From contig OY970061.1 of the NCBI GenBank assembly GCA_963705255.1, positions 2,336,001 through 2,400,000 on the forward strand: 64,000 nucleotides of DNA. The letters run 5' to 3'. A program made the position numbers and the translations under genes. Source of the DNA: an uncultured Methanoregulaceae archaeon. Lineage in GTDB: Archaea > Halobacteriota > Methanomicrobia > Methanomicrobiales > Methanospirillaceae. The notes under the pieces were generated by a model. The model was not told where the DNA came from. It saw only the letters and a list, made by a program, of their open reading frames with translations, and made no database searches. This document shows positions 3,058 through 47,712 of the stretch, piece after piece (positions within the stretch are counted from its first letter, which is position 1; every line of letters begins with the position of its first letter).

Positions 3058-3477
3058 ATGGCAGCACCTAAAAAGACACAGAAGAGAATGCCAAGACGGC
3101 GTGAGGAGTTCACCTATCGCGGCTACAAGATCGACGAGCTGAAAGCGATGGGGATGAGCGAACTCCTCCCCCTTATGCCAGCCCGTCCCCGCCGCAAGAT
3201 CGTCCGCGGGTTCTCCCGTGGTGAAGAGACATTACTCGCTAAGGTTCGCGAAGGCGACGAGAAGATCCGGACTCACCTCCGTGAAATGATCGTCATGCCG
3301 GAGATGGTAGGCAAAACCATTGAGATCTACAATGGCAAGGAATTCGTGAAAGTCGAGTTCCAGCCGGAGTCGGTCTTCCACTATCTCGGAGAGTTTGCAC
3401 TGACAAGGAAGAGGGTCTCTCATGGGAGTGCCGGTATCGGTGCGACCAGAGGCAGCAAGTACGTTCCGCTGAAGTGA
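3058..3477 (+). CDS. rps19: 30S ribosomal protein S19
   Basis: [24 protein letters not shown]. Confidence 0.97.
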
Positions 3478-33827: not shown

Positions 33828-34976
33828 CTACCGCTCCACAACCGACCGCATCAGCGCCATGATGCCCGGCTTCGCCTTCTTCCGGGGCGCACCGAACCCC
33901 ACCCCCGGCTCCTCGAACATCTCTTTGTTCAGCCGCTCGTTGAGCTCGTCGAAGATCCGCTTGTAGGCCGTGCAGTGGGGGTCAACCCCGTCGAGCGATC
34001 CGCCGGAGGGGGCGATCGCGTTGTAAGGGCAGCCTCCCCGGCAGTATTTGATGTGCGAACAGTCCCTGCAGGCCAGATCCACGTACTCAGAGAACGCCGT
34101 CATGCGCAGCCCGGGTCCGGACTGCATGAGGTCCTCCATCTTCGGGCGGTCCCGCACGTTGCCCATCACCCACTCCGGCATCCCGACAAAGCGGTAGCAG
34201 GGGTAGATGCTCCCGTCGGGGCCGATGGCGAACGTGTTGCCCATGCAGTTGACGAACGTGCAGACACTCCCCCGCCGGGTGAAGACGCAGCGGCAGAGGT
34301 CGTTGATGTTCATGACTTCCATAGTGCCGATATTTTCCAGCGACTTGTCGAGGAGGTAGACGAGAAGTTCGCCGTATTCCGCCGGTTCGAGCGCCCACTC
34401 CTTCGGGTTCTCCGAGCGGAGCGATGGGAGGGCAGGGTGCAGTTTCAGGACGAACCCTTTCTCCCTGAAAAAACTGAAGATCTCTTCCCGGTGTTTCACT
34501 GATTTGTTGGTGAACGTGCAGATGAACCGGACAAAAAGACCGTGGGATCTCGCGATCCCGTAACCCTTCATGCACTTTTCATAGTACCCCGCCCCCCGCT
34601 GGGAATCCGTGATCTCCTCCGGGCCGTCGATGCTGGAGCCGATGGGTATCCGGTACTCTGCGAGGACCTCTGCGATCTCCGGGGTCATCCGCCAGAGGTT
34701 CGTCTGCATCGCAAACTCGGGGGTGAGTTCCTTCAGCTCCCCCGCGAGCAGGGGCAGGGCCTGCCGGTAAAAATCAGCTCCTGCAAGGAGCGGCTCCCCG
34801 CCGTGGAAGGTGAAGGTGACCCGGTCGGAACGGAAATTTTTGAGCCAGACCACGACTTCCTTTACCGTGTCGATGCTCATGATTGGAGATCCTTCCTCCG
34901 AGCTCCAGCAGTACCTGCACTTGGACGGGCACCCGAGCGTCGGGATGAGCATGATGTGGAAAGGGCTCTTCATCAC
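33828..34976 (-). CDS. Radical SAM/SPASM enzyme (methanogen peptide-modifying type, TIGR04083-like)
   Basis: IPTLGCPSKCRYC, FHGGEPLL, SPASM cysteines C...GSIYPC...CRDC...YCRGGC...C. Confidence 0.85.
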   Translation of the reverse strand: MMKSPFHIMLIPTLGCPSKCRYCWSSEEGSPIMSIDTVKEVVVWLKNFRSDRVTFTFHGGEPLLAGADFYRQALPLLAGELKELTPEFAMQTNLWRMTPEIAEVLAEYRIPIGSSIDGPEEITDSQRGAGYYEKCMKGYGIARSHGLFVRFICTFTNKSVKHREEIFSFFREKGFVLKLHPALPSLRSENPKEWALEPAEYGELLVYLLDKSLENIGTMEVMNINDLCRCVFTRRGSVCTFVNCMGNTFAIGPDGSIYPCYRFVGMPEWVMGNVRDRPKMEDLMQSGPGLRMTAFSEYVDLACRDCSHIKYCRGGCPYNAIAPSGGSLDGVDPHCTAYKRIFDELNERLNKEMFEEPGVGFGAPRKKAKPGIMALMRSVVER

Positions 34977-37310: not shown

Positions 37311-38906
37311 TCAGTCGCGCTTCTCGTCTTCGGTAACCTGTGCAAGGATCTCCGCGGTCGGACCGATCCCGATGATCTTCCCGCCCCGCATCATTGCCAG
37401 CCGGTCGCAGATATCCCTGACGAAATCCATGTCGTGAGAGACCACGATGAAGGTCTCATCCATCTCGTCGCGGGCATGCAGGATGGAGTGTTTCACGTCC
37501 TGCTTGGTGATCGGATCCATGGTGCCGGTCGGCTCATCGAGGATAACGAGGCGCGGCTCCCGTATGAGCACTTGCGCAAGGGCAACGCGGTGGCGTTCCC
37601 CATCGGATAGTTCGCCCGGGAACCGGTTCAGGATCTCCCTGGATTTCTCTTCGGTGAACCCGGACATCCGGAGCGTGACAATCGCTTTCCGTATCGCGAG
37701 TTCCTTGGGGAACTCCAGGCCGATCGAGTCGGTCAGGTTGTCGAGCACGGTCCTGTGGGGGAAGAGGTCATATTCCTGGTGGAGGAGCCCGATATACTCC
37801 TTCGCCCTTCCCCGCTCTTCAATCCCTGGTTTTGTCATGTCCACCCAGGTATCGCCGATCAGGATGTTCATCTCCCCCCCCGTGGGTTCGATGATACCGG
37901 AGATGATCTGCGAGAGTGTCGTCTTGCCGGCCCCGCTTTTCCCGATGATGCCGAAGATCTCCTTCCTTGCGACATCGAACGTCACGCTGTTCACGGCCTT
38001 GATTACGCCACGATCAACCGAGATGTAGCGCTTGGATATGTCCCGGGCGGCGAGGATCTTCTCCCCGAGTTCGGGTGGCGCCGATTCCTCGATGTCATGA
38101 TAGTCCCGCGTAAACGAGCGGATGACCTGCTTTGGCGAGCCGATTGAGGCGATTTCGCCATCCGCCAGCAGGATTGCGCGGTGCGCCATGTCCTCGATCA
38201 CCTGCGAGAAATGCGAGGTCACGACCATGCCCATCGTGGTGCGCTTCGCTGCTTCGGTCAGCATCCCGTGTACCAGCCGGGCGGTTTCCGGATCGAGCGT
38301 GCCCGTGGGCTCATCGGCAAAGAGCATGGCCGGGTTCTTGGCCAGCTGCCGGGCAAGCACCACCCGTTGTTTTTCCCCACCGGAAAGGTCGCGGGCGATG
38401 TGCATCATCCGGTGGGAGAGTCTCACCTGGTCGATGAGGTCGGCAGCCCGGTTGATCGCGTGTTCAGGCGGGTAACGGATGTCATCGAGTGCATGGAGAA
38501 CGTTCTCGATCACCCGGTCGTCACCGTACAGGGCGAACGTGCGCTGGAACATGATTGCGGTCCGGTTCATGACCCGGGACTTCATGCCGTCGCTCTTTTC
38601 GTCCCAGAGATTGACATCGGCAGCCACGAGTTCGCCCCCGCACTCGGGACAGGTGGTGCCGGCACGGCTCTGGACATCCATGAAGGTACAGCGGTTGCAG
38701 GCAGCCATGTGGTAGACGATCGAGCCGCTGGTCGGCGGCCGCTCAACACCCCTGAGGAGGTGCATGAGCACGCTTTTGCCGGCCCCGCTCCTCCCTATCA
38801 CCCCGACGATCTCCCCTTCCGGGATCTCGAACGACACCCTGTTCAGGACACGGGTGTCGTCGAAGTCCATGCAGAGGTCGTTTACGCTGATGAATGGTTT
38901 TGGCAT
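37311..38906 (-). CDS. atwA: Methyl-coenzyme M reductase system component A2 (double ABC ATPase)
   Basis: Two P-loops, CNRC/CPEC zinc insert, QRTFALYGDD, HRMMHIARDLSGGEKQR. Confidence 0.93.
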   Translation of the reverse strand: MPKPFISVNDLCMDFDDTRVLNRVSFEIPEGEIVGVIGRSGAGKSVLMHLLRGVERPPTSGSIVYHMAACNRCTFMDVQSRAGTTCPECGGELVAADVNLWDEKSDGMKSRVMNRTAIMFQRTFALYGDDRVIENVLHALDDIRYPPEHAINRAADLIDQVRLSHRMMHIARDLSGGEKQRVVLARQLAKNPAMLFADEPTGTLDPETARLVHGMLTEAAKRTTMGMVVTSHFSQVIEDMAHRAILLADGEIASIGSPKQVIRSFTRDYHDIEESAPPELGEKILAARDISKRYISVDRGVIKAVNSVTFDVARKEIFGIIGKSGAGKTTLSQIISGIIEPTGGEMNILIGDTWVDMTKPGIEERGRAKEYIGLLHQEYDLFPHRTVLDNLTDSIGLEFPKELAIRKAIVTLRMSGFTEEKSREILNRFPGELSDGERHRVALAQVLIREPRLVILDEPTGTMDPITKQDVKHSILHARDEMDETFIVVSHDMDFVRDICDRLAMMRGGKIIGIGPTAEILAQVTEDEKRD

Positions 38907-38936: not shown

Positions 38937-39074
38937 TCAGGTCTCTCTCTCCTCTGGCAGATCCGGATCCGTATCCTGTCGCGGGCACCTGTCAGCGTCC
39001 TGCCTGCAGGGTCCTCGTCCCCGTCCGATGATCCGTCCCCGTTTCAGCGGTCCTGTTCCATCAAAGTCCGGCAT
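38937..39074 (-). CDS. DUF5320-like small protein (45 aa), missed by ORF track
   Basis: MPDFDGTGPLKRGRIIGRGRGPCRQDADRCPRQDTDPDLPEERET; GGAG upstream of start. Confidence 0.75.
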   Translation of the reverse strand: MPDFDGTGPLKRGRIIGRGRGPCRQDADRCPRQDTDPDLPEERET

Positions 39075-39106
39075 CAGCTTGTGCTCCGTATCGTAGTTAC
39101 GTAATA

Positions 39107-39126
39107 TTTACACATATGCGCATAAA
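39107..39126 (-). promoter_or_regulatory. Candidate operator copy 1
   Basis: Minus strand TTTATGCGCATATGTGTAAA. Confidence 0.65.
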
Positions 39127-39243
39127 GATTTACGCATAGCGGATCACGAAAAAGAATTGAGCGGGAGGGCCGCCGCCTCCGTCACCGCATCGGTGCCGGC
39201 ACTCCGGGCCCGCCCTTCGGCAGAATGATATGGTCGCAGCTTG

Positions 39244-39960
39244 TTATTTCGAACCGGCTGCACCGACCACGATGGGAAGTGCTGAAATAATCTCGGGGAG
39301 CATCTCGGCCGGCAGACCCATGACCATCTCGTCATCGGCAATCCCGGAGAATCTCCTCGACCCGTCACAGCCGAGCGAGAAGTTCGGTCGTCCGGTCAGG
39401 TAGGTCTGGGCTGTTGCGTCCGAGCAGACCGACTGGATGCCGGAGAACTCGGCATAAATTCTCCCGCCGAGCCGGAAGAGCGAACTCTGCGCAAGTTTGA
39501 GCATTATCCGGGGGTTCGCGACGATCAGGATGACCTGGGGGGTGAACGGGGTCTTCTCCAGCGGGGCATAGAGCGTTGCATACGTATCGCCCGGGTTGAG
39601 GTGGGAGACCTTGTCGATCGTCCGCTTGCAGGCCGCAGCACTGTCAAACTTTCCCAGTTTGAAATAGAACTCCCCGCTCTTCAACGTCGGGGTTATCTCG
39701 CGGAGCCCCAGCGACCAGGCACCGCCGTTACACTCGTGCTTTCCCGACGTCGCGTAGAAAATCTTCCCTTCGGTTCTTGCCAGGTTCACCATCGAACAGT
39801 GCCGGATGGTCTTGTCGAGTTCTTCCATCCCGGCCGGGATCTCTTCTTTTGTTGTTGCGAATTTGAGTGCAACAGGGGATCCTTTGAGCCCGAGTACTCT
39901 TTTGAGCGTCACTGCTGCTTCAGGATAATCTATGGCTATTTTCATTGGTTCGTTGCTCAT
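39244..39960 (-). CDS. DUF169 family protein
   Basis: LGLKGSPVA, RHCSMV, C..G...LG, QSVCSD, SLGCDGSR. Confidence 0.88.
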   Translation of the reverse strand: MSNEPMKIAIDYPEAAVTLKRVLGLKGSPVALKFATTKEEIPAGMEELDKTIRHCSMVNLARTEGKIFYATSGKHECNGGAWSLGLREITPTLKSGEFYFKLGKFDSAAACKRTIDKVSHLNPGDTYATLYAPLEKTPFTPQVILIVANPRIMLKLAQSSLFRLGGRIYAEFSGIQSVCSDATAQTYLTGRPNFSLGCDGSRRFSGIADDEMVMGLPAEMLPEIISALPIVVGAAGSK

Positions 39961-39997
39961 ATCGTTACCTCAAGCCTCCCGTTATGGAATGCCACAA

Positions 39998-40013
39998 TTA
40001 CCCATATGGGTAA
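39998..40013. promoter_or_regulatory. Candidate operator copy 2
   Basis: Perfect palindrome TTACCCATATGGGTAA next to TATA-like TTTAAGTA (minus strand). Confidence 0.65.
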
Positions 40014-40072
40014 AAATACTTAAACGTACGTAAGCGCGCAAAAAATGATTTTACGGGAGTCGCAGAGACCCC

Positions 40073-40465
40073 TTACCGCGGGCATTTCGGGCATCGTCCT
40101 TCAGACGCTTTCCGGCAGCCTGCCATCTCGATACTCTTCCCGTTGACGAGTGCATCGGCAATCTTGCGACGGGTTTCGTGCAGGTCGCGCCACGCCGTCT
40201 TGCGCGAGACCCCGAGTTTTTCTGCGGCCTCTTCCTGTTCAAGTCCTTCGAGGTCGATGAGCCGTATCAGTTCGATCTCTTCAGGCTGAAGCGAGATACC
40301 CGTTCCTTCCTGCTCCGGGCAACAGCAGGGGGTGTAACAGCATGATTCTGACGTACTGTTGATGGTGCGCCTGAGCCGCGGCCTTCCCCGCCGGGGACAC
40401 GGTGTCTCCACGTTACTGTCGCTGGTCAATTGCTCTCCCTTACGGATCAATATGGCATCCTTCAT
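40073..40465 (-). CDS. DUF134 HTH protein, Cys-rich
   Basis: GRPRLRR, EIELIRLIDLEGLEQEEAAEKLGVSRKT, RRKIADALVNGK. Confidence 0.9.
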   Translation of the reverse strand: MKDAILIRKGEQLTSDSNVETPCPRRGRPRLRRTINSTSESCCYTPCCCPEQEGTGISLQPEEIELIRLIDLEGLEQEEAAEKLGVSRKTAWRDLHETRRKIADALVNGKSIEMAGCRKASEGRCPKCPR

Positions 40466-40468
40466 GAT

Positions 40469-40801
40469 TTAACGTTCGTATGGATTCTCATAAAAATGCA
40501 TTCCGGACTTCGCGGCAGGGAGTTTTTTCGGGATCCGGAGCGTCTTTTCCACCCGGTATCTCCCGACAAAGCGGTACGGATCGGAAGGATCCCGTACCCT
40601 CTCGATTTTTGTCACCCTGTACGGGCAGAGGTACGTCGGGTTCTGGTAAATCCGCTGGAAATACCCGGCTATGACCGGGGAACACCTTTTTTTCAGGTGA
40701 AAATAGGAGCGGAATTCCTGGACGGTGACCCAACGCTCCGACCGGGGGTCTGCCTCCATATAGTCTTTGAGCAGTTCGTAGATCTCCGGATGACTGGTCA
40801 T
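40469..40801 (-). CDS. Hypothetical basic protein (possible winged helix)
   Basis: 110-aa ORF ending 3 bp before DUF134 start. Confidence 0.65.
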   Translation of the reverse strand: MTSHPEIYELLKDYMEADPRSERWVTVQEFRSYFHLKKRCSPVIAGYFQRIYQNPTYLCPYRVTKIERVRDPSDPYRFVGRYRVEKTLRIPKKLPAAKSGMHFYENPYER

Positions 40802-40855
40802 AGCCGCGACAGAGGGTCAGGAATTGTCATGGCAGGGACCGGATCTGACACCGGA

Positions 40856-41086
40856 TCACTGACACCTCGGCCCGTGGCCGCAGCGGTGCTGGTTGCCCTT
40901 CGGGAGAAAGCCTGACTCGCAGCAGCAGGTATCGCCGAATTTTTTGGGAGACGTGCATTCTTCACGGTGGCTGGGGGTGCCCGGGCGGTGCCGGTGCTGT
41001 TCTCCGCACGCGCAGGTGTGCAGGGTAGTAGATTCGTCGTCGGTTTTTTGGATATCACTGGGTGGTTGCTGTGTATCTTCTGGCAT
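40856..41086 (-). CDS. Cys/His-rich small protein (metallothionein-like)
   Basis: 76 aa with 8 Cys and 6 His in the C-terminal 55 aa; GGTGA ribosome-binding site. Confidence 0.65.
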   Translation of the reverse strand: MPEDTQQPPSDIQKTDDESTTLHTCACGEQHRHRPGTPSHREECTSPKKFGDTCCCESGFLPKGNQHRCGHGPRCQ

Positions 41087-41119
41087 GTGTTCACCAACCG
41101 TACGGTTGCCGTACGATAA

Positions 41120-41138
41120 TTACTCATATGCGCATAAA
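41120..41138 (-). promoter_or_regulatory. Candidate operator copy 3
   Basis: Minus strand TTTATGCGCATATGAGTAA just downstream of TTTTAAAC. Confidence 0.65.
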
Positions 41139-41219
41139 TGTTTAAAACCTTGTTATCCGGGCACTCCCTTCCGAAGCGGAATGAACCGGTATCCCAATCC
41201 GGTGCAAACGGAGAACGTT

Positions 41220-42568: not shown

Positions 42569-43720
42569 TTATCGTTGTGGCGACAAAATCATCGTGGATC
42601 TGCTGCTGGTCGTGCAAACCCGGAATTTTTCTTTCGGCACGAGAATTTCGAACCGGACACCTTTCCCATACACACCCGACTCTTTGATGGAGAGGCCGGT
42701 GATGGCAAGGATCTCCCGCGAGAGGAACAGACCGAGACCGGTATTTTTCCCGAATCCCTTCTCGAAAATCCTTTCTTTGTCCGACTCATGGACCCCGATG
42801 CCATCATCTTCGTACACGATTGCGAGGGTATCCTGACCATACTGCAATGAGGAAAATGAGATATGCCGGACCCGTTCCCCATGCCGGCGTGAGTTGTCGA
42901 TCAGGTTCTCAAAGACTTTTTCGAGGAGCGGATCGGCAAAGATCTCAAGTCCCTCAACATTTATCGAAACCTCGATCTCCCCGCGGGGAATGAGAGATTG
43001 CAGCGCCTTCAGATGCACGCCGATATCCTGCCAACGGGGGGAGTGGACCCCGATATCCTCGTAATTTTTCGTGAATTCGATCTGCCTCTGGATGGCCTGC
43101 GCTGCGAGATCTTCCCGTTCAATATAATTCTGTATGTTCGGTTCCGTACACTCCTCCTTGGAAAGTTCAATGAACGCCATGAGCCCCATCAGCTGGTTCC
43201 TGATATCGTGGCGGGTGATACTGGAGAGAAGGTTAAGCTTTTTGTTGGCAGTCTTAAACGCGCTCTGCGACGATTCGAGCTGGGAATTGATCTCGGTCAG
43301 TTCCCGGTTCCGTTCAATGAGCTGGTCGCGGTAGCAGTTCATCCGTTCTGCAATATAACCGACCACGGACGCTACGATTACGAACATGCAGGCGCGGATG
43401 ATTGCATCGGATGAGATTATCCCCATCGTGAGATATGTATCCGCAATGTGGAGGGCTCCAAAGAAGAGCGCTATCAGGATGGCCTTCCTGCCGTACCACA
43501 GCCCGGCAAGAACGATGATGAGGTAATAGAAATGCGTGTATACGACCGCGATGTGCATCTGGTAATGGACGATAAATTCAAGGAGGAGTCCCAAGATGAT
43601 CAGGAATGCAAACGCATAGGGTTTGGGCTCATTCAGGGACTTCCACCACGGTCCTCCTATGTCACACTTTTGCAAAACCGAACCTCGTTCATCCTGTCTC
43701 TCTGGATAATTATGGGACAT
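42569..43720 (-). CDS. Membrane sensor histidine kinase
   Basis: LLSSITRHDIRNQL, ENLIDNSRRHG, DDGIG, GLGLFL. Confidence 0.92.
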   Translation of the reverse strand: MSHNYPERQDERGSVLQKCDIGGPWWKSLNEPKPYAFAFLIILGLLLEFIVHYQMHIAVVYTHFYYLIIVLAGLWYGRKAILIALFFGALHIADTYLTMGIISSDAIIRACMFVIVASVVGYIAERMNCYRDQLIERNRELTEINSQLESSQSAFKTANKKLNLLSSITRHDIRNQLMGLMAFIELSKEECTEPNIQNYIEREDLAAQAIQRQIEFTKNYEDIGVHSPRWQDIGVHLKALQSLIPRGEIEVSINVEGLEIFADPLLEKVFENLIDNSRRHGERVRHISFSSLQYGQDTLAIVYEDDGIGVHESDKERIFEKGFGKNTGLGLFLSREILAITGLSIKESGVYGKGVRFEILVPKEKFRVCTTSSRSTMILSPQR

Positions 43721-43813
43721 ATGGGTTAATAATAATCACCTTGAACAATCCCACGGCTCTTTCACGTCCGTTTCGAAATTCCTGTGAATATTACGGAAAA
43801 TTCCAAGGGAACG

Positions 43814-45246: not shown

Positions 45247-47712
45247 GTGTCTGTGAAGAAAAGAGGGGAAACAGTCGTGCCCGGGACGAAAAAGAAAAAA
45301 GCAGAATTGAAAATTTCAGGAATGAGCTGCGCGACCTGTGCTGTCAACATCGAGGATTCCCTGTCGAAGATCAAGGATGTCTCAAAGGCTCAGGTGAATT
45401 TTGGCACTGATACCGCCCATGTCGAATTCGATCCGGAAAAAGTCACGCTTGCCGAGCTGGAAAATGCGGTCAGGGACGCGGGGTATGAGATTGTCAACCG
45501 TGAGGTTGTGATCAAAGTGGGGGGGATGGTCTGCGCCACCTGTGTCCAGACCATCGAAGCAGCTCTCCGTGCACTTCCCGGGGTCGTAAGCGTCTCGGTC
45601 AATCTCGGCAACGAGAAGGCCTATGTCACCTACAACCCCTCCGTCTCCGGAATAGATGAGATCAGGAAAGCCATCGAGGACTCGGGGTACCAGTACCTTG
45701 GGCTTTCCGGAGAGGTAAGCGACGAGATTGAGAGGAAAGCACGGGAAAAGGACCTGCACGACAAGCTCGTGAGGTTCTCCATCGGGTTTGCCGTGAGCAT
45801 CCCGCTCATGATCGCCATGTGGATACCTCTTCCCGTATCCATGCAGGCACTTGCGTATGTGATGCTGGTCATATCCACCCCCGTCTTTGTGTTTGTCTCG
45901 TACCCGATCTTCAGGGCGGCTCATATGGCATTGCGCAACCGCTCCCTCAATATGGATGTTATGTATGCGATGGGGATCGGTGTCGCATTCGTATCGAGTG
46001 TCATGGGCACATTCGGGATCGTGCTCACGACCGAGTTCATGTTCTATGATACGGCTATCATGCTCGCTGCGTTCCTGATGCTCGGGAGATATCTCGAAGC
46101 CCGGGCAAAAGGCAGGACTTCGGACGCGATCAAGAAACTTGCCGGACTCCAGCCAAAAACTGCGATAGTGCTTCGCAACGGCAACCGGGAGGAACTATCG
46201 GTCGAGGATGTCGTCGTCAATGACATTGTCGTCATCAGGCCGGGCGACAAGGTGCCGGTGGACGGGATCGTGGTGGAAGGAGAGAGCTATGTCGATGAAG
46301 CGATGATAACCGGAGAGCCGGTCCCCCCTCTCAAAACAACCGGGAGCAAGGTCGTCGGTGGTACAATCAACCAGAACAGTGTCCTCTCGGTGAAGGCAGT
46401 AAAAGTTGGCAGAGAGACCATGCTTGCCCAGATTATCCAGCTCGTGGAAGATGCCCAGGGTTCAAAGCCCGCGGTCCAGCGGGTCGCTGATACCGCTGTC
46501 ACCTTCTTTATCCCCGCAGTACTCGGGATTGCGGCTGTCGCATTTGTTGTCTGGTACTTTTTCCTCGGTGCTACGCTCCTCTTTTCCCTGACCGGTCTTA
46601 TCTCCGTCCTCGTGGTTGCCTGTCCCTGTGCGCTCGGACTTGCAACCCCGACCGCGGTCACTGTCGGGGTCGGGCGCGGTGCGGAACTGGGGATCCTGAT
46701 CAAGAACGGTGAAGCGCTGGAGGTCTCCGAAAAAGTGACGACGGTTGTATTTGACAAGACCGGGACGCTCACCAGAGGCAGACCGGAAGTAACTGATATC
46801 CTCGCAACCGGGATTTCCGAAGCGACTCTGCTGTCTTTTGCCGCGGGAGTGGAGAAGAACTCCCGGCATCCTCTGGCCCAGGCAGTCGTACGGATGGCCG
46901 GGACCAGGAATATACCGATTGAAGGGGCGGAACGGTTCGATACGTTCGGCGGTAAAGGTGTCTCCGCTCTCATCCTCAGGGAAGAGGTACTTGTTGGTAA
47001 CCGCACCTTCCTGCAGGAGAAGGGAATAGCAATCCCTGAAGGGATCGAGACCGCGATCTCCCGCTTTGAACAGGATGGAAAAACCGTAATTCTGGTCGCC
47101 GTCTCGGGACAGATGGCGGGAGCACTCGCTGTTGCGGATACCCTGAAGGAGACAACACAGGCCGCGGTCACCCGATTGAAAACGATGGGACTGAAGGTTG
47201 TCATGATTACCGGCGACAACAGGCGCACTGCCGATGCAATCGCCCGCCAGATCGGGATCGAAAACGTGGTCGCCGGGGTCCTTCCGCAGGATAAGGCAGC
47301 ACATGTTAAAGCACTTCAGGAAAAAGGGGAGGTCGTTGCCTTCGTGGGTGACGGGATCAATGATGCCCCGGCCCTCGCACAGGCCGACGTGGGCATAGCG
47401 ATCGGGGGGGGAACTGATGTGGCAATCGAGAGCGCGGATATTGTGCTCATCAAGGACAACCTTCTCGATTCGGTTGCAGCTATCCAGCTCTCAAAGAAGG
47501 TCATGGGAAGGATCCGGGGCAACATCTTCTGGGCATTTGCCTATAACTCGGCCCTGATCCCGGTTGCAGCAGGAGTACTCTACCCGTCCTTTGGTATCAC
47601 CTTCCGTCCGGAACTCGCCGCTCTTGCCATGGCGCTCAGCTCGGTGACCGTGGTCAGTCTCTCGCTCCTGCTCAAAACGTATATACCCGAAGCAAAAAAG
47701 GGTAATGAGTGA
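45247..47712 (+). CDS. copA: Cu(I)-translocating P1B ATPase
   Basis: Two GMxCATC domains, TGE, CPC, DKTGT, GDGIND, YN and MALSS motifs. Confidence 0.95.
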   Translation: MSVKKRGETVVPGTKKKKAELKISGMSCATCAVNIEDSLSKIKDVSKAQVNFGTDTAHVEFDPEKVTLAELENAVRDAGYEIVNREVVIKVGGMVCATCVQTIEAALRALPGVVSVSVNLGNEKAYVTYNPSVSGIDEIRKAIEDSGYQYLGLSGEVSDEIERKAREKDLHDKLVRFSIGFAVSIPLMIAMWIPLPVSMQALAYVMLVISTPVFVFVSYPIFRAAHMALRNRSLNMDVMYAMGIGVAFVSSVMGTFGIVLTTEFMFYDTAIMLAAFLMLGRYLEARAKGRTSDAIKKLAGLQPKTAIVLRNGNREELSVEDVVVNDIVVIRPGDKVPVDGIVVEGESYVDEAMITGEPVPPLKTTGSKVVGGTINQNSVLSVKAVKVGRETMLAQIIQLVEDAQGSKPAVQRVADTAVTFFIPAVLGIAAVAFVVWYFFLGATLLFSLTGLISVLVVACPCALGLATPTAVTVGVGRGAELGILIKNGEALEVSEKVTTVVFDKTGTLTRGRPEVTDILATGISEATLLSFAAGVEKNSRHPLAQAVVRMAGTRNIPIEGAERFDTFGGKGVSALILREEVLVGNRTFLQEKGIAIPEGIETAISRFEQDGKTVILVAVSGQMAGALAVADTLKETTQAAVTRLKTMGLKVVMITGDNRRTADAIARQIGIENVVAGVLPQDKAAHVKALQEKGEVVAFVGDGINDAPALAQADVGIAIGGGTDVAIESADIVLIKDNLLDSVAAIQLSKKVMGRIRGNIFWAFAYNSALIPVAAGVLYPSFGITFRPELAALAMALSSVTVVSLSLLLKTYIPEAKKGNE

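Follow-up and report, generated by a model that had tools for sequence, protein, structure and literature searches.

Three minus-strand sites lying within 2 kb of one another appear to be copies of one shared, conserved operator that marks a small regulon, as the earlier note had proposed; their position weight matrix (PWM) scores of 28.3–40.2 bits support this conclusion. They occur in the window, the whole 64,000-nucleotide stretch of an uncultured Methanoregulaceae archaeon that was analysed here. We think it likely that the sites are the operators of a dimeric helix–turn–helix (HTH) protein of the DUF134 family, which would control its own operon (Cys/His-rich peptide, ORF110 and DUF134), a DUF169 gene, and a DUF5320-like ORF followed by an accessory MCR component A2, in an ORP-like regulon with a cysteine-based sensor. 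The sites, their conservation and clustering with DUF134, the HTH fold and the atwA paralogy were computed, and from there we infer binding, the sign of regulation and the ligand. The features are as follows.

37311–38906, minus strand: atwA paralog (‘atwA2’), MCR component A2-type double ABC ATPase (TIGR03269 845.8 bits, cut-off 517.1)
38937–39074, minus strand: DUF5320-like ORF, 45 aa, restricted to the N-terminal motif; opens the atwA paralog unit
39104–39126, minus strand: operator 1, TTTATGCGCATATGTGTAAATAT, before the DUF5320-like ORF and the atwA paralog (PWM 37.7 bits)
39129–39137, minus strand: TATA-like A/T-rich box GCGTAAATC, 5′ of operator 1; presumed TATA function
39244–39960, minus strand: DUF169 protein, 238 aa (PF02596 234.1 bits, cut-off 27, profile positions 2–208 of 209)
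39994–40016, minus strand: operator 2, TTTTTACCCATATGGGTAATTGT, before DUF169 (PWM 28.3 bits)
40019–40026, minus strand: TATA-like box TTTAAGTA, 5′ of operator 2
40073–40465, minus strand: DUF134 HTH protein, 130 aa, proposed regulator (PF02001 74.2 bits, cut-off 27, residues 24–116)
40469–40801, minus strand: ORF110, winged-helix-like, no named family, regulon member
40856–41086, minus strand: Cys/His-rich peptide, 76 aa, first gene of the regulator operon
41116–41138, minus strand: operator 3, TTTATGCGCATATGAGTAATTAT, before the Cys/His peptide–ORF110–DUF134 operon; putative autoregulatory site (PWM 40.2 bits)
41139–41147, minus strand: TATA-like box TTTTAAACA, 5′ of operator 3, read from the sequence and presumed to act as such

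Operator sites at the three promoters

The earlier note had read the operator as minus-strand TTTATGCGCATATGTGTAA (39108–39126), TTTTACCCATATGGGTAA (39998–40015) and TTTATGCGCATATGAGTAA (41120–41138), and all three sequences are present at these coordinates. Its spacing of 30–40 bp to the start codons was also borne out: the ATG follows the operator end by 33 nt at the DUF5320-like ORF (39074), 37 nt at DUF169 (39960) and 33 nt at the Cys/His peptide (41086), with the C of CATATG 44–50 nt before the start codons and an A/T-rich, TATA-like box immediately 5′ of each site, again as described. The consensus core is T[G/A]CnCATATGnG[T/C]A and the extended form TTTATGC[GT]CATATGnGTAAT[TA]AT; operator 2 contains a perfect 16-bp palindrome, TTACCCATATGGGTAA.

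For the scan of the 2.60-Mb genome we used a PWM derived from 46 sites collected from relatives, three of these being from the window itself. Operator 3 was the top match of the whole genome, and the next match after the three operators, at 16.8 bits (C1:312346), was close to the control maximum, the best scores in the reversed-genome controls being 16.7 and 12.9 bits. No further operators were found in this genome by the scan. The regulon is thus local here, with three promoters inside 2 kb and no site elsewhere. Four of the six occurrences of CATATGNGTAA in the 2.60-Mb genome fall within the three operators. A pattern derived from the sites matched the window three times, whereas 100 shuffles gave 0.06 matches on average; this comparison is circular because the pattern was taken from the sites themselves. 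An exact-pattern match at C1:922332 was set aside: it lies without A/T-rich flanks and outside the top 30 PWM matches.

The PWM found no site at the CopA gene, the DnaJ-domain gene, the MBL gene, the histidine kinase or the permease around the locus. The suggested ‘metal handling’ link to CopA thus finds no support in the motif. The ‘weaker variant’ at the kinase start (43710–43730) was rejected as an operator: its scores of 4.7 and 3.7 bits do not reach the control maxima, and the variant reads CACATG in the ortholog of one relative (G010) and is missing from another (G004).

Conservation of the motif and its candidate binder

The earlier note had named a search upstream of orthologs as the test of its own claim; this was run, and the motif is conserved. 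Within the genus, the site orthologous to operator 1 is kept in eight loci (L031–L038), operator 3 is kept before the orthologous peptide operon, and sites precede DUF169 orthologs in G003, G004, G012, G015 and G022, and also in the DUF134-less G020. An order-wide scan with GCNCATATGNGTAA gave 81 matches in 41 Methanomicrobiales genomes, against five for the reversed control. A DUF134 match is found no more than 5 kb away from 51 of the 81, and no more than 10 kb away from 55, an association that is partly gene clustering and that is drawn from related genomes, which are non-independent samples. Of the remaining 26 matches, many come from short contigs, and at least two (L099 and L102) look like chance. 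Two of the 81 come from the nine genomes in which DUF134 had no match; a re-test for PF02001 in DUF134-less genomes was negative (0 of 5). Five DUF134-positive genomes have motif variants only and no exact match. Beyond the order, among 30 DUF134 loci that belong to other families in the same phylum, 8 have RCNCATATGNGY within ±1.5 kb (shuffle mean 0.36, maximum 3), and the other 22 have no CATATG-core palindrome.

DUF134 is the sole DNA-binding protein common to all operator loci, and is by far the best candidate for an autoregulating binder of the operators. Besides PF02001, it matches Sigma70_r4_2 at 31.1 bits and NCBIfam PRK04217 at 64.2 bits, below the latter’s cut-off of 115. In the AF2 model, the HTH (residues 61–108, with helices 61–72, 77–84 and 88–108) has pLDDT >90, and Foldseek places it closest to region 4 of ECF sigma factors (rmsd ∼0.8 Å over ∼50 residues, with a weak E of 0.05); a profile search against solved structures gave nothing beyond spurious matches to designed TIM barrels and weak ones to sigma region 4. 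The region of the recognition helix, SRKTxWRDLH, has invariant residues among 26 sequences of the order. The homodimer model scored 0.71, against 0.00 for the best of three controls, with at least 88% contact agreement between runs and partner pLDDT of at least 64; among solved structures, 20 of 30 homo-pairs and 1 of 23 single chains attain the score mark applied, counts that hold here only roughly because our model was made with our own alignment. Modelling therefore supports a DUF134 homodimer, with a predicted interface of residues 41–49, 59–74 and 96–112. The small DNA-binding proteins of DUF134/UPF0251 form a large family in anaerobes, for which searches of the literature by the whole-word names DUF134, UPF0251 and COG1342 returned no functional study. 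A defined operator, a three-promoter regulon and four candidate ligand cysteines would now open this family to direct test.

Could another factor bind the palindrome, with DUF134 merely a co-regulated target? ORF110 or an unlinked regulator might do so, but we regard this as improbable. Apart from DUF134, ORF110 is the sole protein in the vicinity that resembles a DNA binder. It has no Pfam or NCBIfam match, and its protein-atlas relatives are unnamed archaeal clusters only; its AF2 model (pLDDT 80.8, topology H-E-H-H-E-E) is winged-helix-like, in this genus it is found together with DUF134 and the motif, and its paralogs sit in target operons. However, the Foldseek matches, to winged helices of the MarR, CtsR and TFE types, are weak (E ≥0.035, TM 0.3–0.5). 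Moreover, ORF110 is present in 21 of the 41 genomes, yet the 12 genomes of families f3–f6 yielded no copy, and 6 of these 12 nevertheless show the exact pattern close to DUF134, DUF5320 or NifX-like genes. ORF110 was accordingly rejected as the order-wide binder and is retained as a minor rival. In other families of the phylum, CATATG-core palindromes adjoin DUF134 genes, and DUF134 is the common element there. The same-genus genome G020, 99% complete and on a single contig, keeps an operator-like site intact 40 nt before DUF169 in the absence of DUF134, which points either to recent loss of the gene or to another user of the site; G020 also lacks ORF110.

The G020 copy would also fit a specialised core-promoter element, an unusual TATA, BRE or initiator sequence that the basal machinery, or else an alternative TBP/TFB, would recognise, as would the overlap of the motif with the expected start and its orientation relative to the gene, which shows in a consistent difference between the arms (TTTATGC on the left, GTAATTAT on the right). 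We find this very hard to credit. The core is a true palindrome, typical of dimeric regulators, and is perfect in operator 2 and in two loci of relatives, L043 and L058 (T-R-C-n-CATATG-n-G-Y-A). The housekeeping atwA copies are driven by another promoter, which is conserved and lacks the motif. Furthermore, in three of four DUF134-less genomes of the genus (G002, G021 and G005), the motif 5′ of DUF169 has decayed while the TATA-like box (TTTAAGTA or TTTAAATA) is kept, and the DUF169 promoter thus works without the palindrome. Binding by DUF134 remains the reading that we prefer.

Promoter geometry, control and sensing

The position of the operator bears on how DUF134 would act. Across the 46 collected sites, PWM columns −14 to −12 read T/A-A-A and the TATA-like box ends ∼10 nt 5′ of CATATG. 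Because of the distances to this box and to the start codon, we predict that transcription starts inside the right arm, so that the operator, directly 3′ of the TATA-like box, should cover the start. This placement suggests autorepression, and bound DUF134, most likely a repressor, would block recruitment of RNA polymerase. Archaeal repressors such as MDR1, LrpA and Phr, of the DtxR, Lrp and wHTH families, have their operators between the TATA box and the transcription start. DUF134 would resemble them in the location of its operator and in the control of its own gene, whereas the protein families are unrelated to it.

Archaeal activators, on the other hand, usually bind upstream of BRE/TATA. 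Activation or dual regulation by DUF134, in which loading or oxidation of the cysteine site would switch on expression of the accessory A2, DUF169 and the DUF134 operon, is unlikely in our judgement, even if it deserves more weight than the other alternatives. The TATA-like boxes GCGTAAATC and TTTTAAACA are weak and could need help for TBP/TFB, and OrpR, the regulator of the analogous orp genes of Desulfovibrio, is an activator that is active anaerobically (PMC8359166). Nevertheless, the operator lies 3′ of the box, over the expected start, in all 46 collected sites, and the regulated promoters still have a recognisable box; the housekeeping promoters of the same genomes have strong TATA boxes.

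DUF134 would presumably respond to a signal. The cysteine clusters of DUF134 pointed out by the earlier note are present, and C43, C48, C117 and C125 are each at least 90% conserved in the 26 sequences of the order. These four may hold the sensor, the first two lying at the modelled dimer interface; the N- and C-terminal cysteine regions are modelled at low confidence (pLDDT 46–69). Other DUF134 lineages have obvious C-terminal zinc-ribbon motifs, so the four cysteines may form a structural zinc site instead. Of the metal-sensing autoregulator proposed from the sequence, the autoregulator part stands as the best candidate; metal sensing is one candidate among several, since the Fe-S/metallocluster regulon of relatives and the four cysteines point at least as much to Fe-S or redox sensing. 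The sensor would most likely be an Fe-S cluster, a redox-sensitive site or a metal site that couples promoter occupancy to cluster or redox status, with a feedback logic like that of IscR, SufR or OrpR. IscR and SufR are Fe-S-sensing autorepressors with Rrf2 or DeoR-type folds. The proposed likeness lies in a small dimeric HTH protein encoded in its own operon, a palindromic core-promoter operator, cysteine ligands and feedback on cluster handling; DUF134 differs in its sigma-region-4-type HTH, in the hypothetical status of its cluster and in acting on archaeal basal machinery.

The component A2 paralog and the regulon in relatives

The window gene had been taken for the MCR activator atwA. 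Its family assignment holds, with a TIGR03269 score of 845.8 bits and with two Walker A motifs, two Walker B motifs, two ABC signatures and an N-terminal CNRC...CPEC (CxxC..CxxC) all kept, but it is not the cell’s single MCR component A2. A housekeeping copy lies elsewhere in the genome (G000:C1:2093336–2094916; 878.2 bits, above the window copy), ∼77% identical to the window copy. The latter falls in a clade of DUF134-linked copies (support 100/100), separate from the housekeeping copies, and is confined to genomes where DUF134 adjoins; it is thus a second, DUF134-linked paralog. Among the literature matches listed, nothing relevant on atwA paralogs in Methanoregula was found. A preprint describes the CxxC..CxxC zinc-binding motif as distinguishing A2, and A2 of M. 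acetivorans as constitutively expressed and encoded in an activation operon (bioRxiv 10.64898/2026.03.18.712670), and the A2-containing MCR activation complex is reported to hold three [8Fe-9S-C] clusters (PMC12176620). The window copy, a predicted A2-type protein, shares the A2 hallmarks of these accounts and differs from constitutive A2 in standing behind an operator as a separate-clade paralog.

The remaining genes are less familiar. The DUF5320-like ORF scores 27.2 bits against PF17253 (cut-off 27), over profile positions 1–25 of 99, and reaches 24 bits, short of the cut-off, when the genome is searched; orthologs of 46–55 aa precede atwA in eight same-genus loci. DUF169 has no solved relative found by sequence, and in the portions of the literature on DUF169, DUF5320 and COG2043 that were available, mentions of DUF169 are incidental. 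The Cys/His peptide has no Pfam match; 14 of its 23 homologs are named by their source, being placed in Methanoregula, Methanoregulaceae or Methanomicrobiales, and every one of these is called hypothetical. Its conserved motifs are HTCACGE..H, SHR.ECTS, CCC and CGHGPRC. The DUF134 start is 3 nt from the ORF110 stop, and operator 3 precedes the peptide–ORF110–DUF134 unit, likewise in same-genus loci.

In relatives, strand-specific ORF listing with Pfam checks showed the operator targets to be genes for NifX-like proteins, MinD-like [4Fe-4S] ATPases, Mrp/NBP35, DUF5320, ORF110-like and radical-SAM proteins; the Pfam matches were PF02579 (four), CbiA/MinD with Fer4 (two) and PF10609 Mrp/NUBPL (two). 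This set resembles the ‘orange protein’ (ORP) metallocluster genes. As PF02579 has no match in the genome studied here, the metallocluster theme rests on the relatives, and the window regulon would be a reduced derivative of such a set rather than an ORP cluster; this genus may have recruited the A2 paralog into an ORP-like, metallocluster-handling regulon. The orp system of Desulfovibrio vulgaris Hildenborough has in common with the relatives’ regulon the NifX-like proteins, the MinD-like Fe-S ATPases and the Mrp/NBP35 carrier, and its regulator OrpR has a redox-sensitive [4Fe-4S] cluster and, by ChIP-seq, only two orp operons as targets (PMC8359166, PMC6345978). The DUF134 regulon is likewise small and local, and its regulator would use cysteines for sensing. 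OrpR is, however, a sigma-54 enhancer-binding activator with a PAS sensor, whereas DUF134 is a 130-aa archaeal HTH protein placed like a repressor. The MCR A2 paralog, DUF169 and the Cys/His peptide of the window are absent from the abstracts of both papers (PMC8359166, PMC6345978).

A whole clade of genomes thus retains a second component-A2 ATPase under an operator shared with carrier genes of the Fe-S/nitrogenase-cofactor type, and this co-regulation is a concrete, if indirect, lead to the route of [8Fe-9S-C] delivery and to conditional control of MCR activation. Taken to its limit, the DUF134 regulon might be an inducible supply or repair line for MCR activation. A DUF134 dimer carrying a cluster would sense cluster shortage or oxidation; in response, the A2 paralog, DUF169, the Cys/His peptide and, in relatives, the NifX-like, Mrp/NBP35, MinD-like and radical-SAM/SPASM proteins would supply or resupply the McrC/Mmp7 complex with its NifB-derived [8Fe-9S-C] clusters, or bring MCR back to activity. 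We offer this as a long shot; if it were true, the ORP-like proteins of anaerobes would be nitrogenase-type cluster carriers for non-nitrogenase enzymes.

Operator sites far from DUF134 genes precede the same target families. Full-length DUF5320 proteins (66–97 aa, with a C-terminal GRGG..GCG.GFG) are encoded behind the operator in relatives, one of them (L036, 82 aa) scoring 26.8 bits, just under the cut-off of 27. At the NifX-like genes of relatives, the C of CATATG is only 7–21 nt before the start.

Distribution of the operator

Three minus-strand operators had been claimed, before a DUF5320-like ORF followed by atwA, before DUF169, and before an operon of a Cys/His peptide, ORF110 and DUF134, and all three were found where the earlier note had placed them. 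The genes behind them are also those it had named, with the identity of DUF5320 marginal only.

Genes behind the three operators in the window, with profile scores
37311–38906 (−), atwA, encoding MCR component A2: TIGR03269, 845.8–846.6 bits against a cut-off of 517.1
40073–40465 (−), DUF134, a 130-aa helix-turn-helix (HTH) protein: 74.2 bits
40856–41086 (−), 76-aa Cys/His peptide: no family match in a Pfam/NCBIfam search
ORF110, 110-aa neighbour of DUF134 in the same operon: no family match in the same search
DUF169: 234 bits
45-aa DUF5320-like ORF before atwA: 27.2 bits against a cut-off of 27, matching 25 of the 99 profile positions, at the N-terminal end

The window's genome is a single contig of 2.60 Mb with 54.6% G+C, in which CATATGNGTAA occurs six times, four of these belonging to the three sites. 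A position weight matrix (PWM) was derived from 46 distinct sites from relatives, three of them the window's own. It scored the three sites at 40.2, 37.7 and 28.3 bits, against 16.8 bits for the runner-up in the genome and maxima of 16.7 and 12.9 bits in reversed-genome controls, a gap that indicates an element restricted to three promoters within 2 kb.

Conservation of the motif upstream of orthologs had been named as the test on which the regulon should stand or fall, and the motif passed it. In the same genus it lies at equivalent places before the DUF5320-like ORF and atwA, before DUF169, and before the peptide-ORF110-DUF134 operon, with the consensus TTTATGC[GT]CATATGnGTAAT[TA]AT and the palindromic core T-R-C-n-CATATG-n-G-Y-A. 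A DUF134 protein search gave a match in 32 of 41 genomes (the window's own and 40 relatives of the same order), and an unbiased scan of these 41 with the pattern GCNCATATGNGTAA returned 81 matches, compared with five for the reversed pattern. A DUF134 match lies no more than 5 kb away from 51 of the 81 and no more than 10 kb away from 55, while the nine genomes with no DUF134 match account for two; when the DUF134 Pfam model was re-run on five of these nine, it found none. We conclude that the operator is almost certainly real and conserved.

A weaker variant had been proposed to overlap the kinase start at 43710–43730, but its PWM scores of 4.7 and 3.7 bits and poor ortholog conservation (it reads CACATG in one ortholog and is missing from another) rule it out as an operator. 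At this histidine-kinase start (43700–43790, minus strand) there is an A/T-rich element, GATTATTATTAAC[CT]CA[TC]ATGTCC[CA]ATAATTAT, which is kept in one ortholog (genome G010) and does not fit the operator. The gene at 45247–47712 (plus strand), 4 kb from the regulon, was identified from its translation as a P-type ATPase of the CopA type; two heavy-metal-binding motifs lie at its N terminus. The PWM detects no operator site at this gene, so a link to copper is unsupported.

The candidate operator-binding protein and its mode of action

Among proteins with a DNA-binding fold, DUF134 alone is found alongside the motif in every family of the order. The DUF134 HTH (residues 61–108) is predicted with pLDDT above 90 and superposes on region 4 of ECF sigma factors to about 0.8 Å over about 50 residues, albeit with a weak Foldseek E-value (0.05), and the recognition-helix region SRKTxWRDLH contains residues that are invariant across 26 DUF134 sequences. 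A homodimer model scored 0.71, the best of three controls 0.00; of the proteins solved as one-chain pairs 20 of 30 attained this mark, and of those solved as single chains one of 23, counts that hold only roughly here, since the DUF134 runs (at least 88% contact agreement, partner pLDDT at least 64) used their own alignment. The modelled pairing supports DUF134 being a dimer, which would fit a palindrome. Outside the order but within the phylum, the palindrome RCNCATATGNGY was found within 1.5 kb of eight of 30 DUF134 loci and was absent at the other 22; shuffled versions gave a mean of 0.36 and a maximum of three.

The operator might instead be bound by ORF110, whose model is winged-helix-like (pLDDT 80.8), with weak matches to MarR-, CtsR- and TFE-type winged helices (E at least 0.035), and which co-occurs with DUF134 within the genus. 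ORF110 was nevertheless missing from all 12 genomes searched in families f3–f6 of the order, six of which carry the exact pattern. We therefore consider it very probable that DUF134 is the operator binder.

The 46 sites behind the PWM have a T/A-A-A block that stops about 10 nt 5′ of CATATG, and the distance from the C of CATATG to the start codon is 44–50 nt in the window and 7–21 nt at the NifX-like genes of relatives. Archaeal transcription begins roughly 22–27 nt beyond the TATA-box centre, which would place the start within the operator's right arm. A DUF134 dimer bound there would be expected to occlude RNA polymerase, and an operator over the start site is the classical position for an archaeal repressor. 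We think it probable, on this positional evidence, that DUF134 is a repressor.

The earlier note had regarded DUF134 as metal-responsive. C43, C48, C117 and C125 are each at least 90% conserved in the 26 sequences, and residues 41–49 of both subunits lie within the modelled interface; the model has low confidence in these Cys regions. In other DUF134 lineages the tail is a plain zinc ribbon. Whether the cysteines sense cluster, redox or metal status seems to us evenly balanced. If DUF134 does bind the operator, an Fe–S cluster would be the leading, still tentative, candidate for its ligand. A structural zinc, with the signal arriving through a partner such as the NifX-like protein, the Cys/His peptide or ORF110, is less likely; direct binding of a metal ion (Zn, Ni or Fe) is a slightly more doubtful prospect, and a thiol redox switch the least likely of the four. 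The explanation as a whole, in which DUF134 acts at these operators, represses its own operon and senses through cysteines, is the one we favour as likely.

A second DUF134 paralog group, of about 50% identity, has one in-frame TGA within the match in five genomes (G016:C114:720-1088, G010:C10:168494-168859, G023:C430:3844-4215, G014:C6:8073-8435 and G008:C13:8339-8692); candidate explanations are recoding, broken genes, or a match that runs on across a stop lying upstream. The ORF110 family, which has no Pfam family, is expanded to six or seven matches in some genomes (G010, G016, G023), the extra copies often standing in tandem and closing DUF5320-NifX-Mrp operons. In a search of the 41 genomes, ORF110 matches came from families f1 and f2 only.

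The atwA paralog and genomes without the regulator

The proposal that the regulon includes atwA holds in part: an A2-type gene does lie behind the operator, but the housekeeping A2 gene lies outside the regulon. The window's genome has two full A2 genes, the housekeeping copy at C1:2093336-2094916 (878.2 bits) and the window copy (846.6 bits), in which the two Walker A/B sets, the two ABC signatures and the zinc motif CxxC...CxxC are all preserved. At least two A2 copies (E up to 1e-150) occur in 17 of the 41 genomes, all 17 with DUF134, and all nine DUF134-less genomes have one. A single copy is likewise present in the remaining 15 DUF134-positive genomes; these are mostly from other families in which DUF134 does not adjoin atwA, or are fragmented assemblies.

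A tree built from 33 A2 proteins separates two clades in the genus: one holds its ten DUF134-linked copies (100/100), the other its housekeeping and single copies (13 rows, 100/97). The tree leaves out a probably frameshifted linked copy (G035), partial copies from G008 and G040, and the copies of G006, G012, G016, G022 and G023. All 11 linked copies were grouped in only 24% of bootstrap trees, because the linked copy from G030, a member of another family, has a long branch of unresolved placement. Within the housekeeping clade, genomes with one copy are scattered among those with two, implying that the module was lost, or gained, more than once. In G035, the linked atwA (L040, 5153–6725) falls in two reading frames (query residues 5–211 and 211–529) and, from its sequence, is probably frameshifted; the housekeeping atwA of this genome is intact.

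Both DUF134 and ORF110 are missing from five genomes of the same genus. Their only atwA lies at another locus, where its promoter, GCGATCGTGAC...GCATATAAAAGGTAATATG, is a different one and strongly conserved; this gene has neither a DUF5320-like ORF nor the motif. Four of the five retain DUF169, and in three of these (G002, G021, G005) the palindrome before it has decayed while the TATA-like box, TTTAAGTA or TTTAAATA, is kept. Such a pattern would be expected once a repressor has been lost, and it argues against a basal promoter element. Genome G020 (99% complete, one contig) keeps an intact site before DUF169 despite lacking the regulator, which fits repression by DUF134 only if the regulator was lost recently; it is the main observation that needs such an assumption. 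In G005 (60% complete) the one site precedes an Mrp-type gene.

The promoter block of the genus housekeeping atwA is strikingly conserved: GCGATCGTGAC, about 20 nt, GCATATAAAAGGTAATATG, then CACATTAG, as seen in the 130 nt upstream of G000:C1:2093336-2094916 in the window's genome and in loci L106–L112 and L051–L055. It is a second conserved cis-element, distinct from the operator, before an essential methanogenesis gene. A preprint describes A2 of M. acetivorans as essential and constitutively expressed (bioRxiv 10.64898/2026.03.18.712670); the words 'paralog' and 'Methanoregula' are absent from it.

Regulon content in relatives

In relatives, the same operator precedes NifX-like (PF02579) genes, operons of a NifX-like gene with two MinD/CbiA-type ATPases carrying 4Fe-4S ferredoxin inserts, Mrp/NBP35 (PF10609), full-length DUF5320 genes, ORF110 paralogs, and a Cys/His peptide followed by a radical-SAM/SPASM gene. 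A search of the window's own genome found no PF02579 gene, and DUF5320 is represented there by the short DUF5320-like ORF only; the window's regulon is a reduced version of the relatives' set. By gene content, the target types resemble the 'orange protein' (ORP) set of Desulfovibrio, in which, according to two papers, an Mrp-type protein hands Fe–S clusters to the ORP proteins it partners, and OrpR, the regulator, uses a [4Fe-4S] cluster to sense redox (PMC6345978, PMC8359166).

An autoregulated, palindrome-binding repressor is a known type, and the literature searched yielded no characterization of the DUF134 family and no paper on its pairing with an operator. The window adds three points: in one methanogen genus and a sister family the regulon has taken in DUF169, a Cys/His peptide and a dedicated A2 paralog; there are natural 'knock-out' genomes without the regulator; and, as a correction, housekeeping A2 is placed outside the regulon. 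According to one paper (PMC12176620), in which the word NifX is absent, the MCR activation complex contains A2 and three [8Fe-9S-C] clusters, probably made by NifB. Co-regulation of an A2 paralog and a NifX-like carrier would thus be a worthwhile, if indirect, lead.

Occasionally the operator precedes a cdhA-like gene or an ABC transporter (L098, G030:C3, at 3109; L097, G027, at 3125), possibly extending the regulon to other metalloenzyme genes. The 781-aa target protein was taken as CdhA (CO dehydrogenase/acetyl-CoA synthase alpha) by its N-terminal sequence alone, and the other target was read likewise as a periplasmic binding protein/ABC transporter operon with a putative TsaA-like gene. 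Two further exact-pattern matches (L099, L102) look like chance because they lack the A/T-rich flanks.

In G004 (L092), a homolog of the window's Cys/His peptide (2534–2749) stands directly before a radical-SAM/SPASM gene (1234–2397), behind the same operator; this gene is homologous to one in the window (33828–34976, minus strand). In G020 the radical-SAM gene follows DUF169, and in G009 the atwA paralog. Peptide and radical-SAM protein may form a peptide-maturase pair, or the latter may be a cluster-handling enzyme of the regulon.
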